DNA from: an uncultured delta proteobacterium
Lineage (GTDB): Bacteria > Desulfobacterota > Binatia > UBA9968
Length of the DNA: 64,000 nucleotides
Reading direction: 5' to 3'
Assembly: GCA_963728565.1 (NCBI GenBank)
Contig: CAVSLC010000011.1
Coordinates: 1-64,000 of the forward strand
The notes below the pieces were generated by a model that was given only the letters and a program-made list of their open reading frames with translations, made no database searches and had not been told where the DNA came from. This document shows, in pieces, positions 57,091 through 63,700 of this stretch (positions are counted from its first letter, which is position 1; every line of letters starts with the position of its first letter). The translations under genes were made by a program, and so were the position numbers.

Positions 57091-58138
57091 CTATGTTGCT
57101 AGCAATAGATATCGATTGTCGTCGTGACTTAACTTTGTGCCGAACGTGGAAGACAGCCGAGCGACGTTGTCCATAATTGCCGCTGATCCTGGTTGGTCAG
57201 GTCCTAATAAAGCAGGCTGCTCTTTTTCGTTGAGCGCGCTTGGAATGGCAGCAACTGTCGATATCTTATGATTGCGTAACTCTGCGACGACGACCAGACC
57301 ATTTCGATATCCCCGAGCCGGTTTAAAATCCGATCCGAAGATAAAATTACCCAAACTATAAAAGATCGGTTTCCCTTTGTAAATTTCGACGGCTTGGATG
57401 ACGTGCGGGTGGCTTCCGACCACCAGATCGGCGCCGGCGTCGACAGCCGACCGTCCCAAGGTGGTCTGATACTGGCAGACTTCGTACTGCCCTGAAACTC
57501 CCCAATGGAAATAGACGATCACGACGTCCACTTTTTTGCGGAGTTCGATGATGTCGTTCCTGACTTCCTGGAGCTGCTTTTCATCGGGATGGGTCAGCGT
57601 CGTCGCAGGCGCGCCGGGCATCTCAAAAAGTCGCCGATGGGGCTCATACGAAGTATAAACTTTCACACTCGCAACGCCTGCTTTGCTTTCAGTCGCCGCC
57701 TGTCCGACCGGCCAAAATACCGACGTATAGGAAAGCAGACCGAACGTTGTATCCTTCGCTCCGAATATCGCGGGGCGCCGCGCTTCCCGTACGTTCATCC
57801 CGGCGCCGGCATGGCCGATGTTGTATTTCTCGAGTAAAGACAGAGACTGTTTGATTGCATCGTCTCCGAAATGAACGTTGTTGGCGCAAGCGGCGGCGTT
57901 GATTTTGAGTTCAGCGAGCACCTTAACAAAGTCTCGATTGCAATGGCGCCAACCCGGCTTATGCTGAAGCAATACGTCGGGATCGAAAAGACAGCCTTCC
58001 AGATTGCAGATTTTCACATCGAAAGCGTCGAAATCTTCCCTCACTCAGATCCAGCACGTTCGCTGGTTCGATTGGGCTGCCGAGATTAATGTCTCCCACT
58101 AATGCCAGCGACAAATCGCGCCGCGTGTCACTCGCCAT
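57091..58138 (-). CDS. CapA-family metallophosphatase (frameshift near 58045)
   Basis: LVGDINL / CNLEG, ANNVH, YFHWG, GADLVVGSHPHVIQ, YSLGNFIF. Confidence 0.85.
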
Positions 58139-58358
58139 TTCTTTGCTCCTCGTTGGTACGTTTAACTTAGTGTTAAGCAAATGTCTATTTAGCTTGGCGC
58201 GAACGGGAGTTGTCGCACTCCGCCGCTTCATGTGAGCCGCTATTGTGAGCGCCGCCCGGTTAGGATTGTGAGCACCCTGAAAATGGGATATGAGTTTTCT
58301 GCGTTTATCACTTGCCCGCCGATTCGATACCAGCATTCAATATAGAGGAGAGCGCTTT

Positions 58359-59738
58359 ATGAACGAGACGAGCGACCTGGCCAAATGGATGGTGGGGTTG
58401 AAATGGGTAGACATTCCCCGCGAAGTCATCGACTATTCGAAAATTCTTGTTCTCGATACCATGGGCTGCATGTTAGGCGGATCGATTCAGGATAGTAACA
58501 AAGCTGCGCTTCGTTATACTCGCGCCATGGGTGGCTCGCCCGATTCAACGGTGGTCAATTATGGAGACCGAACCAACCCTTTTAACGCCGCCTTTATAAA
58601 TGCTTCCTTCGGCCACGGTTGGGACTTCGACGACATGATCAATGCCGGCGCGGGGCATGCCGTGAGCGCTTGTACGGCCGCGACGATGGCGTTGGCGGAA
58701 AAAGAAATCATTAGCGGGAGAGAGTTTCTCGAGGCTTGGATCACGGGTTACGAAGTCTCCAATCGTATCGGCGCCGCCACAAAGCCGGGGCACTTGAAAC
58801 GGGGTTTTCACGAGGTCGGGACGATCGGTCCCTTCGCTGGAAGCGCTGCCGCAAGTAAAATTTTGCGGTTGAACAAATGGCAAAGCGAGAATGCGATTGG
58901 GATTACCGTGAGCCAGGCGGCTGGAACCTTCCAGCACAGCCAGACCACCGGCGGCGCGATCAAGAGGTGTCATGCCGGCTTTGCGGCGGCGAGCGGAGTT
59001 CGATCGGCGTTGTTAGCAAAGGAAGGAATGACGGCTGCAAGGGAAGCTCTTGAAGGCAAGAAGGGCTTTGTCTTGTGCCACTCCGGGGACGAGAATGACA
59101 TGGATGCGATTACGCGAGACCTGGGTAAGGAGTGGTATACGACCAAAGCGGCTATGAAACCATACTCGTGTTGCGCGGGGCAGTACGGCATGCTCGACAT
59201 TATCTATAAGATGAAGGGGAAATACGATCTCAAGCCGGAAAATATTGAACGCATCAAGCTCTGGGGCAGCATCCGAAATATGTGGATGGTAGGCACGATC
59301 AAAGGTGAAGAGGTCAAGGATATCTTCGGCGCGCAGTTCAGCGCCAGATTCGGCGTGGGTCTGGCGTTGGTCGTGGGAGAAAACCGGATCAAAGCTTATC
59401 ACCAGAATATTCCGCCTTTTGGCAAATGGGCAGAAGTTGTCGAACTGGCTAAAAAAGTGGACGTGTACAACGACGACGAGATTCCGGAACGCGGCCCCAT
59501 CTTCGGTTATGCGAAATGCGAAATCCAATTAAAAGACGGTCGCACGTTGAAGGGCGAGTCGGGATCGCCCATGGGTTTTCCGGGTAACCCGATGCAACGG
59601 GAAGAGCGCCTGGAAAAGTTTTACGGTCAGGCGTTGCTAGTCCAGACTAAAGAAAAGGCCGACAGGATTGTCGAACTGGTTGAGAATCTCGAAAACCTAG
59701 AGGATATCCGGCCGATCGTCAGAAATATGATTTGCTAG
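58359..59738 (+). CDS. MmgE/PrpD family protein
   Basis: RBS AGAGGAG; LDTMGCMLGG, GHGWDFDD...GH, GYEV, LEGKKGF, AQFS. Confidence 0.92.
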   Translation: MNETSDLAKWMVGLKWVDIPREVIDYSKILVLDTMGCMLGGSIQDSNKAALRYTRAMGGSPDSTVVNYGDRTNPFNAAFINASFGHGWDFDDMINAGAGHAVSACTAATMALAEKEIISGREFLEAWITGYEVSNRIGAATKPGHLKRGFHEVGTIGPFAGSAAASKILRLNKWQSENAIGITVSQAAGTFQHSQTTGGAIKRCHAGFAAASGVRSALLAKEGMTAAREALEGKKGFVLCHSGDENDMDAITRDLGKEWYTTKAAMKPYSCCAGQYGMLDIIYKMKGKYDLKPENIERIKLWGSIRNMWMVGTIKGEEVKDIFGAQFSARFGVGLALVVGENRIKAYHQNIPPFGKWAEVVELAKKVDVYNDDEIPERGPIFGYAKCEIQLKDGRTLKGESGSPMGFPGNPMQREERLEKFYGQALLVQTKEKADRIVELVENLENLEDIRPIVRNMIC

Positions 59739-59760
59739 ATTGGTTACGGTCGAGAGCGAC

Positions 59761-60701
59761 ATGAGCGAAGGATCCGAGTTCGACATTGTTATCATCGGCG
59801 GAGGAGTCGCTGGTCTTAGCGCTGCATTGTTCGCGGCGCGCTTCGGACATTCGACAATGGTCATTGAGCGCTTTTCGCCCGGCGGTCATTTGGTGAACGT
59901 CGAGAGCATCGAGGACTTTCCGGGTTTCCGAACGGCGTGCCGGGGTATGAGCTCGTTCCACTAATGCAAGAGCAAGCCGCTAAATATGGTGCTGAGTTTC
60001 AAATGGCCGAGGTCGAAAGCATTGAGGCGGTGGAATCGTACTGGCAAGTGAACACCGCTGAAGGCATCTGTCACGCCAAAGCGGTGATCGTCGCAACCGG
60101 GTCTCATCCAAAGGATCTGGGCGTGCCGCGTGAGAGCGCACTGCGTGGGCAAGGGGTTTCTAATTGCGCCAGTTGCGACGGACCTCTGTTTACCGATCAA
60201 GTGGTCGGAGTTGTCGGCGGAGGGAGCTACGCCCTGCAGGAAGCGTTAACCTTGGTAAACCACGCCTCTCAAGTGATCTTGTTTCACGATCAAAGAACGC
60301 TCTCCGCTCCGCAGACTCTCCAGCAAAGAGTGCTCAGCCATCCTAAAGTAGCCGCGCGCTACAATACGACGGTGGAAGAGATCCAGGGAGATGATGCAGT
60401 TACGGGTGCCGCGGTTCGCGATACCCTCACCGGAGAAAAATCTCAGGTTCAGCTCGCTGGTATGTTCATATATGCAGGCTTGGAGCCAAACACGGACTTT
60501 TTGAAAAACCTTCTGCGGCTGGATCACGATAATCGGGTGCCAACTGATGGCTGGATGCGGACTGAACTCCCCGGTCTGTTCGCGGCAGGAGATTTACGAA
60601 CGGACTCCGCGGGGCTGGCGATTACCTCAGCTGGTGATGGTGCAGCCGCGGCTATAGGAGCTCACGGATACCTCAAAGACCGGGTATGGAGACAAAAGTA
60701 G
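59761..60701 (+). CDS. trxB: Thioredoxin-disulfide reductase-like FAD oxidoreductase (frameshift near 59930)
   Basis: IIGGGVAGLSAA, IEDFPGF, VIVATG, GVSNCASCDG, VVGGG, GLFAAGD. Confidence 0.85.
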
Positions 60702-60814
60702 CACCTGGGGACTGCGGCACGACGCACGATATCTCCATGTAAATTTCGTCTAAAAATGAGATAGATGTATCATGCTTTTTAGCAGAGCGTATAAAAAAGG
60801 GAGGGCAGCAACCT

Positions 60815-61390
60815 ATGAATGGCTTCATTGTATTAGATCCTGTGGGCATTCCTCAGAAGGGTACCAGGAAGCCGCTGAAAGGCGTGGGAAATCTTGAGGG
60901 CAAGAGGATTGGTTTTATTTGGGGGATGCATGAGCTCTCCACTAAGTTTTGGCCAGTTTTAGAAGAGGAGATAGTTGGCGCGCTCAAGCCCCGCGAGGTT
61001 CACCGAGTGCATAAGAATGACAAAACTGATGGAAGAGCTAAGGGCAATACCTGGATCCCGGCGCCATTGCGAATAATCGAGGAAGCCGCATCAAAGGTCG
61101 ACTATGCGGTTCTAGGTGTCGGGGCTTGAGGGTCCTGCACATCTGCCGCCGTGCGTGACACGGTAAATATGGTAAAGCTCGGGATTCCATCAGTTGTATT
61201 TGTCCACGAACCTTTCGAGAGACTCGCCAGAGCTCAGATGAGACAACTCGGAATAGAAGATTCAAAACCCTTTGTGATCGTCTATCCAGTCGATCGACCG
61301 TCCGCCGATTCCCAGGAGACAGTGCGTAAAAAAGCAAAAGAACAACTCCAGCGCATACCTGATTTGCTCAAGGTCCAACAGTGGCGGTGA
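60815..61390 (+). CDS. UGSC-family selenoprotein (Sec at TGA 61127-61129; 191 aa)
   Basis: ORFs 60815..61129 and 61151..61390 share a frame and join as ...DYAVLGVGA-U-GSCTSAAVRD...GIPSV. Confidence 0.85.
61130..61171 (+). promoter_or_regulatory. Bacterial SECIS-like hairpin
   Basis: CCGTG-CGTGA-CACGG (61149-61163); the apical loop starts 25 nt after the UGA with G at position 2. Confidence 0.6.
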
Positions 61391-61502
61391 CTGGTAACCG
61401 CTGTCGATGGCGACGAAGCTGCTCATGTAGTGAACGAATTGGATCGACAGAGAGGCTTCATCGGTGCTGAGCGCCGGGGTCGCATGACAAAGGAGTAGAA
61501 TC

Positions 61503-62596
61503 ATGAGCCTGCAAAATTACAAATTGACTTCGCAGCAGTACCAAGTCGAGGATATTGATGCGTTCGCAGATCTGGCCTATGAGAAGGGCTGGACCAATGG
61601 ATGCCCGTGTTCCCTCCGACACTCAAGAAAGTGACGGCGATCATCGACTATTTGAAACGGCCACCTGACGAGGCGCTCGGCATCGTTTCTCCTGGCGAAG
61701 GAGTCGCGACGATCGAGAAGATCGCAATCAATTGTGCGATGGCCGGCTGCAAGCCGGAATATGTTCCGGTGGTGCTTGCCGCCATGGAAGCGATACTGGA
61801 CCCGAATTTTCATATTTTGAGTGCCCAATGCAGTACATTCGGTGGTCTCGCCCCTGGCTATTATTAGCGGACCTGTGGTCAAGAAGCTTGGCTTTAACCA
61901 TTCCGAGGGAGCCCTCGGTGGTTCGGGTCATCGGGTAAACGCCACCATTGGCCGGGCGATCCGCTTGATCCTGTGGAACATCGGTCAGGGCAAGCCGGGA
62001 GAACTTTCGAAAACGGTGTACGGTGGACCGGCGCGCTGGCATTCATTGATCGCCGAGCGGCCGAGAGAAGAAGGGAATCCCTGGGACGAGTTCCACGTCG
62101 ATTACGCCGGGCTAAATGCTCAGGATAGCGCTGTGTCGATGCTAGGCGCCAATGGCAAGGTTGTATCGTGCGGCTTTGCAGCCTCATCGATCGACAATAA
62201 CATCTCGACAATAGCAAACGACATCAAGGGAGACGGCGTAGCGGCCGCTCCGCATGTCTTCGTGCTGAATCCGCAGGGAGCTAAAATTTTAGCGGATGCG
62301 GGCTGGAGCAAGGAGCGTTTCCGGGATGCAGTTTATGAGCAATGCTATGTTCAGGTGAGAGATATCAAAAAAGTAGCTAGCCAGGCTTCACCGACTAGCG
62401 TCTACTACTGGATGAAGAGGATCAGTCCGGATAATGACGATGCGAAACTCTTTCCATCGCCGAGCCCAGCCATTTGAAAATCTTGGTATCGGGAGGCTTT
62501 GGCGGCAGTCATGTGTGCTATCATTTCAGAGGCAGTACGCATTCGCTAACCGGCTCGGGCTTAGTTACAAAAAAGATCAACTGGAATTGGGACTAA
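61503..62596 (+). CDS. Conserved UGSC-associated hypothetical protein (several frameshifts)
   Basis: RBS AAGGAG; YEKGWTNG.PVFPPT, TIEKIAINCAMAGCKPEY.PVVLAA, GHRVNATIGRAIRL, LADAGWSK. Confidence 0.75.
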
Positions 62597-62651
62597 TGCA
62601 GAGAGCTTGAGTTACAGAAACAAAATCTTTATTGCATCGCAGGGGATTACA

Positions 62652-63700
62652 ATGGAAAAAGTTTCATTCTCAACGGCTTGTGTCGTTGGGTCCTGTTTCG
62701 GTATGCTTCCTTGGCTTTAATACTTCCCTTCACGCTCAAACAGACTCTTACTACAAAGGCAAAACTGTCACGATCGTAGTGGGCGTCTCTCCCGGCGGCG
62801 CCTATGATGTGTGGGCGCGGCTAATCGCGCCGCACCTAAGCAAACACATCCCGGCAATCGCAGGTCATCGTTCAAAATATGCCGGCGCCGGGAGTCAGTC
62901 GCCGCCAACTACGTTCACAACGTTGCCAAGCCTGATGGTTTGACCATGGTGATGCCGGCCAACCGATTGTATATCAATCAAATCGTCGGCCGCCCAGAGG
63001 TCAAGTACGATGTGCGAAAATTCGCATGGATCGGCAACCCGCAGAGATATTACACGGTGATCTATATGCGCGCCGACGCGCCATATAAGTCCATAGCGGA
63101 CATCATCAGCGCAAAAGACCAGCCAAATGCGGTGCGCCTGGGACAAACAGCGCCGGCTACACTCTTTCGCAACTCCTCGAAGAAGCTATAGGAGCCAAGT
63201 TCGAATTTGTGTTGGGGTATCCCGGCGCTAGTGAAATCGACTTGGCAGTTGAAAGAGGAGAAGTCATTTGCCGCGGTCACGATATCATCAATCACTTCAG
63301 TGGAAGCACTTATAGGGCTTGGCACGAAAGAGGGTTTGACCGCCACATCGTTCAAGACTCACCAAAAGAGACCCAAAACTGCCGGATACACCGACCATTT
63401 ATGAGCTCATGGATAAATACAAAACATCTCAGATCGCTCGCAATGTCACCGAGTTCATTTCAGCAAGCGCTGAATTTGGCCGGCCGATGCTGACCTCGCC
63501 AGGAACTCCGGTGGACCGAGTAAAAACATTACGCGAAGCTTACGCTAAGACGATGCAAGATCCGGGATTCATCGCGCAGACGAATAAATCAAAGTTGGTA
63601 TTGCAACTCTACCGGAGAAGAGTTACAGGCGTTGGTAGAACGGATCATGAACCAACCCACGGAGGTCATTGAGCGCGTAAAGAAAATATTAAACGAATAG
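62652..63700 (+). CDS. TctC/Bug tripartite tricarboxylate transporter substrate-binding protein (multiple frameshifts)
   Basis: YYKGKTVTIVVGVSPGGAYDVWARL, AKPDGLT, GYPGASEIDLAVERGEV, FGRPML..PGTP. Confidence 0.85.

Follow-up and report, generated by a model that had tools for sequence, protein, structure and literature searches.

A predicted UGSC-family selenoprotein gene with a shifted SECIS hairpin in a conserved gene array of an uncultured Binatia bacterium

The UGSC family and related selenium systems

UGSC-containing proteins form a described family that has gone without an assigned function for about 20 years. In the passages on UGSC of the Global Ocean Sampling (GOS) selenoproteome of Zhang and Gladyshev (PMC2398784), the protein appears as a predicted selenoprotein, represented in the GOS data by 255 sequences with selenocysteine (Sec) and 21 with Cys, and is reported fused to a domain called Unknown_1. 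The selenoprotein lists of PMC13188914 and PMC9312934, as far as they concern this family, also include it. A first-pass annotation of the DNA studied here, made from the sequence alone, had called UGSC a predicted selenoprotein family of unassigned function, and the relevant passages of PMC2398784 and PMC1976440 describe it in the same way. That DNA is a 64,000-nt stretch (the window) comprising positions 1–64,000 of contig CAVSLC010000011.1, from an uncultured delta proteobacterium of the Binatia (assembly GCA_963728565.1, labelled G000 below; completeness 80.55%). We propose, at a probability of roughly 0.85 for this explanation as a whole, that two open reading frames (ORFs) of the window, 60815–61129 and 61151–61390, are a single gene for a 191-residue UGSC-family selenoprotein.

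Two further systems frame the comparison. The archetype of the bacterial selenocysteine insertion sequence (SECIS) is that of Escherichia coli fdhF. The constraints given for bacterial SECIS elements in the Fig. 2 legend of PMC13188914 are a loop of 3–9 nt with a G among its first two positions, a stem of 4–16 bp, a spacing of 16–37 nt and a folding energy of at most −7.5 kcal/mol. The selenoprotein B group of glycine and proline reductases (GrdB, GrdF, GrdH and PrdB) carries Sec in a strand-U-G-[ST]-C-helix segment, followed by ...E-K-x-G-[IL]-P... and ...PHP..., and the window protein shares this layout. The UGSC family and its fusion to an uncharacterized domain are already published, in the parts of the literature cited above; what the window adds is a divergent branch with a shifted SECIS frozen at the nucleotide level in a conserved five-gene array, a controlled profile test of the link to GrdB, and the tracing of broken neighbouring genes to assembly artefacts.

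One reading frame across an in-frame UGA

Both ORFs lie on the plus strand in a common frame, with starts 336 nt (112 codons) apart, and the sole in-frame stop between them is the TGA at 61127–61129. The first-pass annotation had described two in-frame ORFs split only by TGA GGG TCC TGC; the common frame and the single stop stand, while the stated interval was too short, as the TGA is separated from the GTG at 61151 by 21 nt (GGG TCC TGC ACA TCT GCC GCC). Read-through of the TGA yields 191 residues (about 21 kDa), terminating at a second TGA (61388–61390), and places U at residue 105 in a U-G-S-C motif with the context ...LGVGA-U-GSCTSAAVRDTVNMVKLGIPSV... (in longer form, ...DYAVLGVGA-U-GSCTSAAVRDTVNMVKLGIPSVVFV...). 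Direct reading also bears out the remark that the second piece lacks a ribosome-binding site, a purine-rich Shine-Dalgarno sequence being absent 5′ of GTG 61151. The features of the proposed gene are:

60800–60804, plus strand: Shine-Dalgarno-like GGAGG, 10 nt 5′ of the ATG at 60815 (direct sequence reading)
60815–61390, plus strand: predicted UGSC-family selenoprotein gene, 191 codons and a terminal TGA (Pfam match, selection, read-through translation)
61127–61129, plus strand: in-frame TGA predicted to encode selenocysteine, residue 105 in U-G-S-C (conserved column)
61148–61164, plus strand: predicted SECIS hairpin, 6-bp stem GCCGUG/CACGGU, 5-nt loop CGUGA

Comparative sequence evidence, set out in the next two sections, makes it almost certain that the window gene is a real Sec gene. 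Two minor observations concern its expression. Promoter and terminator scans returned fewer sites than in shuffled sequence. Contigs from an RNA library (X15) cover 61148–61376, one of them crossing the TGA; the library may hold DNA, and we do not count it as proof of expression.

Conservation of the UGA codon and the Sec machinery

The read-through product matches the Pfam UGSC family (PF24696) at 96.3 bits against a cut-off of 25, with residues 6–185 covering profile positions 2–170 of 172. As in the described family (PF24696, NCBIfam NF041046 and the sequences covered in PMC2398784), the domain spans the whole length and U-G-S-C stands at the invariant column; in our 48-sequence UGSC alignment, U/C105 and C108 are the only invariant columns. 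Sec and Cys forms also occur side by side, as elsewhere in the family. The first-pass annotation had suggested a search for homologues with Cys at the UGA and had named homologues split by other stop codons as counter-evidence. The in-frame UGA aligns with Cys in homologues (as CGSC or CSTC) and is kept in orthologues. Among 84 classed copies from 80 loci (one genome per species), the codon at this column is TGC in 46, TGT in one and TGA in 37, and TAA or TAG in 0 of 84. Full-length Cys forms in the protein databases (P0013 and P0017) read CGSC.

The TGA is retained in a close relative with 96.7% nucleotide identity (L023) and in every orthologous metagenome locus that extends as far as this codon (24 of 24); the full set has 25 orthologous loci, with protein identities of 70–98%, one of which (L155) ends 5′ of the site. 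TGC or TGT in the reads had been listed as a further refutation, and neither was seen in independent contigs. For the TGA itself we rely on contig X1 (59700–61184), whose 11 differences from the window are all listed, with none at 61127–61129 and a synonymous G>A at 61132; the differences of X2 and X3 are incompletely listed. Two further UGSC copies in the genome, on contigs C6 and C5, each carry one TGA at the aligned column. More broadly, UGSC is found in 25 of 31 related genomes (a set that includes G000), and 64 of the 67 matches contain exactly one TGA, the remaining three being partial and ending short of the site; an unpublished genome, G162, supplies two of the 67.

Selection on the protein is similar on both sides of the codon. 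The ratio of nonsynonymous to synonymous substitution rates (dN/dS) between the window gene and six orthologues is 0.05–0.13 on either side of the TGA, with dS roughly 1–2, apart from the N-terminal comparison with L146, which is saturated and gives no value. Such ratios after the TGA imply that translation continues in this frame through the downstream part.

The Sec machinery, whose presence the first-pass annotation had asked to have confirmed, is encoded in full in this one genome. The genes selA (607.5 bits), selB (395.7 bits) and selD (382.3 bits) are adjacent on contig C28 (34981–39495), and selC, the tRNA-Sec gene, lies on contig C25 (74.2 bits, anticodon tca). The selD gene on C28 carries an in-frame TGA of its own. 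Global reassignment of TGA was considered and ruled out: TGA is the commonest stop in the genome, terminating 910 of the 2168 open frames that are 300 codons or longer.

The SECIS hairpin

The hairpin proposed at first pass is present as described, with a stem of CCGTG (61149–61153) and CACGG (61159–61163) and a loop at 61154–61158 with G at position 2, and it gains one further pair, G61148·U61164. Twenty-four nucleotides separate the UGA from the loop, which begins 25 nt past the A of the TGA. Like the bacterial elements modelled in the relevant part of PMC13188914, it is a stem-loop in the coding sequence just past the UGA, with G then U in loop positions 2–3, and it falls within the constraints listed above, with a borderline energy for the bare hairpin (−7.4 kcal/mol as a 17-mer and −8.2 kcal/mol in a 21-nt context). 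Compared with bacterial SECIS elements in general, the window element is short and weak, at −7.4 to −8.2 kcal/mol. The 81-nt region around it folds like its shuffles (z = 0.05).

Comparison with relatives supplies strong, in our view decisive, evidence for the predicted SECIS and for the UGA. Nowhere in the gene except at codons 112–116 (nt 61148–61162, the hairpin) do two or more successive codons stay fully invariant across an orthologue set in which 159 of 181 degenerate codons vary synonymously. This set comprises 21 full-length sequences (the window, L023 and 19 metagenome loci; 19 distinct), with L143, L144, L148, L153, L154 and L155 left out as partial or disrupted by an indel. The hairpin is nucleotide-invariant across all orthologues, including at five synonymous sites, and the invariant codon run points to selection on the hairpin RNA. 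Of 16 sequences, 12 have C-G as a seventh pair (61147–61165), one has G-C (L133, a compensatory change), and in three, among them the window, this pair is broken; the 7-bp form carried by most orthologues folds at −10.8 kcal/mol.

The same signal extends to the family as a whole. Sequences following TGA fold with a mean z of −1.39 (n = 36), against +0.21 following Cys codons (n = 47), a difference with a Mann-Whitney p of 4e-9 that is overstated because the sequences are related. In the canonical family hairpin, five of nine pairs show compensatory changes, and the covariation score was reached by 0 of 500 shuffles; this analysis used 25 of 28 distinct copies of the C6 type, with L059, L062 and L074 dropped for downstream sequence of another type. 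The loop of the window element follows the UGA after 24 nt instead of the 19 nt of the canonical UGSC SECIS. The C6 copy likewise has a spacing of 19 nt, and a GRDB-family gene on contig C13 of the same genome one of 18 nt. Judged from these alignments, the window branch uses a shifted SECIS variant, placed two codons downstream of the canonical position.

A divergent member of a described family

The window gene is a divergent member of a described family and no new selenoprotein. It differs from other UGSC members in its long branch (1.49 changes per column, within a clade of mostly actinobacterial Cys fusions), in a 9-residue insertion, TDGRAKGNT, at its residues 71–79 (seen in the 48-sequence alignment), and in a score of 74.1 bits against the NCBIfam equivalog model NF041046 (cut-off 125). 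Both UGSC paralogues of the genome also fall below this cut-off, at 112.3 and 56.1 bits. These scores place the window protein inside the wider Pfam family and outside the NCBI equivalog.

The gene was called hidden at first pass, and the description is apt. Gene callers cut close relatives at the TGA, leaving in the protein databases N-terminal pieces that end ...GVGA (P0010, P0011, P0012 and P0016) and C-terminal pieces (P0020 and P0021), and the NCBIfam score is under its cut-off. Annotation pipelines will miss a gene that is both split at its TGA and below the family threshold. A search of the UGSC profile against PDB sequences gave nothing credible, the best match (E 0.068) being a succinate dehydrogenase flavoprotein segment with C-G-x-C.

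Relation to the Sec centre of GrdB and PrdB

GrdB genes have a thioredoxin-system gene nearby, a setting shared by the window's UGSC gene with its TrxR-like neighbour. The first-pass annotation had pointed to a parallel between the UGSC motif and the Sec segment of GrdB and PrdB, and profile comparison upholds it, in that each of two UGSC profiles could be aligned with a profile of the GRDB family through the Sec column. The GRDB-family alignment (A4) brings together the C13 gene and further loci drawn from 151 sampled genomes of the phylum, 25 sequences in total, each carrying TGA at the Sec position. In hhalign, it matched the 48-sequence UGSC alignment at 96.6% (E 4.8e-10, 68 columns) and a second, independent UGSC alignment, built from 73 database proteins, at 93.9% (E 1.6e-7, 92 columns), with the Sec columns matched in both. 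Reversed-alignment controls that keep composition and CxxC spacing scored 0.6–2.5%. Greedy extension aligns the whole of UGSC, at low confidence, with roughly the C-terminal half of GRDB (profile columns 175–419 of 454). These comparisons support a relation of UGSC to the Sec centre of GrdB and PrdB, rather than to generic thioredoxin-like proteins. PMC2398784, PMC13188914, PMC9312934 and PMC1976440 each mention UGSC as well as GrdB, and their passages on UGSC draw no link to GrdB.

The likeness is confined to one part of the protein. UGSC and the GrdB group share a homologous Sec-bearing centre, a U-x-x-C after a strand and then a G-[IL]-P strand. GrdB is about 440 residues long, whereas UGSC, with 191, corresponds to at most its C-terminal half and lacks the N-terminal half of about 215 residues. 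Also missing is the pyruvoyl proprotein partner (GrdE or PrdA) of the described reductases; at the window locus, no GrdA, GrdE or PrdA-type neighbour is present.

The genome does encode a GRDB-family (PF07355) selenoprotein elsewhere, on the minus strand of contig C13 (266674–267726, locus L103), with Sec in VAT-U-GTC (context ...VLFVAT-U-GTCSRSGAVMSKELEKAGLPVA...). It was the only gene returned by a PF07355 search of the genome, and its match contains no internal stop because the model ends one residue ahead of the Sec.

The partner family

An unnamed protein family adjoins UGSC in 76 of 80 genome loci. Each of the three UGSC copies of the genome has a partner copy beside it, and UGSC-partner fusions make up many ORFs of 550–600 aa, including the C5 copy. 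Cys-form pairs of UGSC and partner occur in cultivable bacteria such as Neorhizobium galegae, Sphingomonas sp. MMS24-J13 and Nocardioides sediminis KCTC 19271. Pairing or fusion with the partner is a feature that the window locus has in common with the described UGSC family, and the published text suggests that the partner family is Unknown_1 of PMC2398784, as that domain is presented in the passages concerned. The family is large, with 2700 clusters at E up to 1e-5 among 8000 candidates scored, annotated as 'hypothetical' where named. Its invariant residues include D32, R151, E185 and W194, numbered as in the L023 partner. Single-protein scans found no Pfam or NCBIfam match for the partner, and its profile matched nothing credible among PDB sequences (best E 1.2). 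In the Atlas, the neighbours of a stored partner homologue are members of the same family only, some clusters of which are fused to UGSC or to thioredoxin (Trx), TlpA or AhpC-TSA-type domains. A gene resembling thioredoxin reductase (TrxR) lies within 4 kb of UGSC in 33 of the 80 loci. On the strength of the pairing and fusions, UGSC and its partner probably form a complex.

Gene array and assembly indels

In the window, UGSC is the third of five genes in the order MmgE/PrpD, TrxR-like, UGSC, unnamed partner and TctC receptor. The other four are:

58290–59738, plus strand: MmgE/PrpD-family gene, first of the array (Pfam MmgE_PrpD_N 202.2 bits, MmgE_PrpD_C 69.2 bits)
59740–60701, plus strand: TrxR-like flavoprotein gene with a CASC redox motif, in two frame pieces (59740–59964 and 59937–60701)
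61503–62596, plus strand: gene for the unnamed-family partner (about 364 aa), broken into four pieces by assembly indels near 61600, 61848 and 62453
62607–63700, plus strand: gene for a TctC-type periplasmic receptor (tripartite tricarboxylate transporter), interrupted at several assembly indels

The array is conserved in order in soil and sediment metagenomes. Of the 25 orthologous contigs, 17 hold the MmgE/PrpD gene, 23 the TrxR-like gene, 23 the partner and 17 the TctC gene, with the misses at contig ends. All three broken genes are intact in L023, encoding 320 aa (TrxR-like), 364 aa (partner) and 367 aa (TctC; Pfam TctC 56.3 bits). The larger TrxR-like piece scores 239.7 bits with NCBIfam TRX_reduct, and the intact L023 protein 307.8 bits, below the 343.45 bits required for true TrxB, which marks the TrxR-like protein as a paralogue of TrxB. 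Matches to the partner profile cover 61515–61613, 61586–61846, 61845–62453 and 62447–62593. The TctC start is taken from a TTG in L023, and the true start may be a few codons later.

Independent contigs from four runs (three of DNA, one of an RNA library) show twelve indel differences from the window over 59.9–63.7 kb, none of them listed within the UGSC gene. They insert letters at 59921, 61600, 62453, 62849, 62858, 62881, 62896, 63117, 63361 and 63607 and drop one letter at 61848; the break in the TrxR-like frame is a 1-nt assembly deletion, repaired by a T after 59921. L023 and the window are separated by 27 gaps, covering 37 positions, along 7.1 kb. The intact frames in L023 and in the independent contigs indicate that the neighbours' breaks are assembly indels and not decay, and a pseudogenised operon, considered as a candidate, was rejected on the same grounds, every frame being restored. 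Further indels occur at 58045 and 61474. Relative to L023 and the independent contigs, the indels as a whole are single-base (twice two-base), several in short C or A runs, and the genes disrupted by them in this assembly are PGA_cap, TrxR-like, partner and TctC; split ORFs also occur in the contig beyond the window, at 64–70 kb.

Among the three UGSC modules of the genome, only that of the window adjoins TrxR-like and MmgE/PrpD genes (within 12 kb). A tblastn search of the genome returned 69 segments resembling TctC-type receptors, which suggests a large Bug/TctC receptor family.

Proposed mechanism

In the mechanism that we envisage, SelB with Sec-tRNA would bind the hairpin at 61148–61164 and insert Sec at the UGA at 61127–61129, and the second TGA (61388–61390), which has no such element, would terminate translation. 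Gene order, fusions and profile homology suggest that the U-x-x-C centre and the Sec centre of GrdB and PrdB are homologous, that UGSC would be the redox subunit of a two-part reductase, and that the unnamed partner encoded directly downstream may be its catalytic or substrate-binding half. The U-x-x-C would then cycle between selenol/thiol and selenenyl-sulfide states while the partner binds the substrate, and the TrxR-like flavoprotein encoded directly upstream would re-reduce the selenenyl-sulfide with NAD(P)H after each turnover. The substrate may be a carboxylate, a guess that we base on the TctC receptor and MmgE/PrpD-family neighbours.

Taken together, we offer the tentative proposal, somewhat less likely to be right than wrong, that UGSC is a minimal stand-alone version of the GrdB/PrdB Sec domain, forming with the partner and the TrxR-like protein an undescribed class of selenium-dependent reductase that would act on a carboxylate taken up via TctC and handled by the MmgE/PrpD protein, and that carries its own SECIS variant. 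GrdB-like reductive chemistry is, in our estimate, likewise somewhat less likely than not. Together, the relation to GrdB, the obligate partner and the TrxR-like gene yield a specific hypothesis open to laboratory testing.

Alternative explanations

Several observations tell against the selenoprotein assignment or the proposed function, and they are best considered beside the alternatives. Were the TGA a true stop, this would be the site of a split or decaying gene yielding two small peptides or none, as the two pieces given by gene callers, the database relatives ending at ...GVGA and the broken appearance of neighbouring genes might lead one to think; the assembly around the UGSC gene is error-prone. 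The hairpin is short and, taken alone, weak evidence. Equally good hairpins follow 66 of 1014 (6.5%) other plus-strand TGA triplets of the window, its loop is about 6 nt farther from the UGA than in the C6, C5 and C13 selenoprotein genes, and an Rfam search of 60700–61600 at E up to 10 found no SECIS family, only a chance CRISPR-repeat match (E 4.1). To these points belong the NF041046 score below cut-off and a single database relative, P0007 (77% identical), that has Ser at the U position (GVGA-S-GSC), either as a real variant or through an error. We nonetheless consider a true stop very improbable: the second piece has no ribosome-binding site, the arrangement is kept in all 24 orthologues with the low dN/dS after the TGA, the 84 copies admit TGA and never TAA or TAG as a stop at the column, the genome encodes the Sec machinery, and the neighbours' breaks are assembly indels that the relative and the independent contigs lack. 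Even less weight, next to none, goes to a base-calling error for TGC or TGT. The indel counts given above show how noisy the assembly is, but the errors seen are indels and not substitutions, and the TGA recurs in L023, 24 metagenome contigs, the X1 contig, both UGSC paralogues of the genome and, among relatives, 64 of 67 matches.

Accepting a selenoprotein, the function could still be of another kind. UGSC might be a self-contained thioredoxin-fold thiol/selenol oxidoreductase engaged in general redox buffering or disulfide exchange, with the partner as a mere client and no GrdB-like chemistry. The relevant passages of PMC2398784 and PMC13188914 place UGSC among Trx-fold UxxC proteins, the former terming the fold 'likely Trx-like'; a UxxC motif and a TrxR-like neighbour would suit any thiol-disulfide relay, and a partner family also fused to Trx, TlpA and AhpC-TSA-type domains may be the client of varied redox donors. 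The similarity to GrdB, moreover, is limited to about 70–90 columns, and Pfam GRDB (PF07355) does not match the window protein at E up to 1, a miss explained by a model that stops one residue before the Sec. Nor does the partner resemble its supposed counterparts: a scan of 45 members gave scattered weak Pfam matches (best E 0.017–0.3) and no glycine-reductase family, the family has no invariant Cys or Ser able to give a pyruvoyl group, and the idea that it is itself a GRDB-family relative was rejected at a profile-profile probability of 0.1%. Against the thioredoxin-fold explanation, a Pfam scan of the window protein found no thioredoxin-type family at E up to 1, the GRDB profile match (94–97%) runs across the Sec centre and on to the ...PHP... 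segment, and the one-to-one pairing and frequent fusion with a single partner family are unlike a general redoxin. We regard this explanation as unlikely, though less so than a true stop.

Related genes in other genomes

One genome of the same family as G000 (G165) has 12 UGSC matches, 11 of them with one TGA, in a large expansion of the module. In genomes of the same phylum, loci L108–L126 encode 18 short GRDB-like proteins of 244–340 aa (one of 562) with TGA in ...LL[VT]P[VAG]-U-[PG]-x-C.... Their matches to the GRDB model are restricted to positions of roughly 200–345, and on this basis they look like a separate family of short selenoprotein-B-like proteins.

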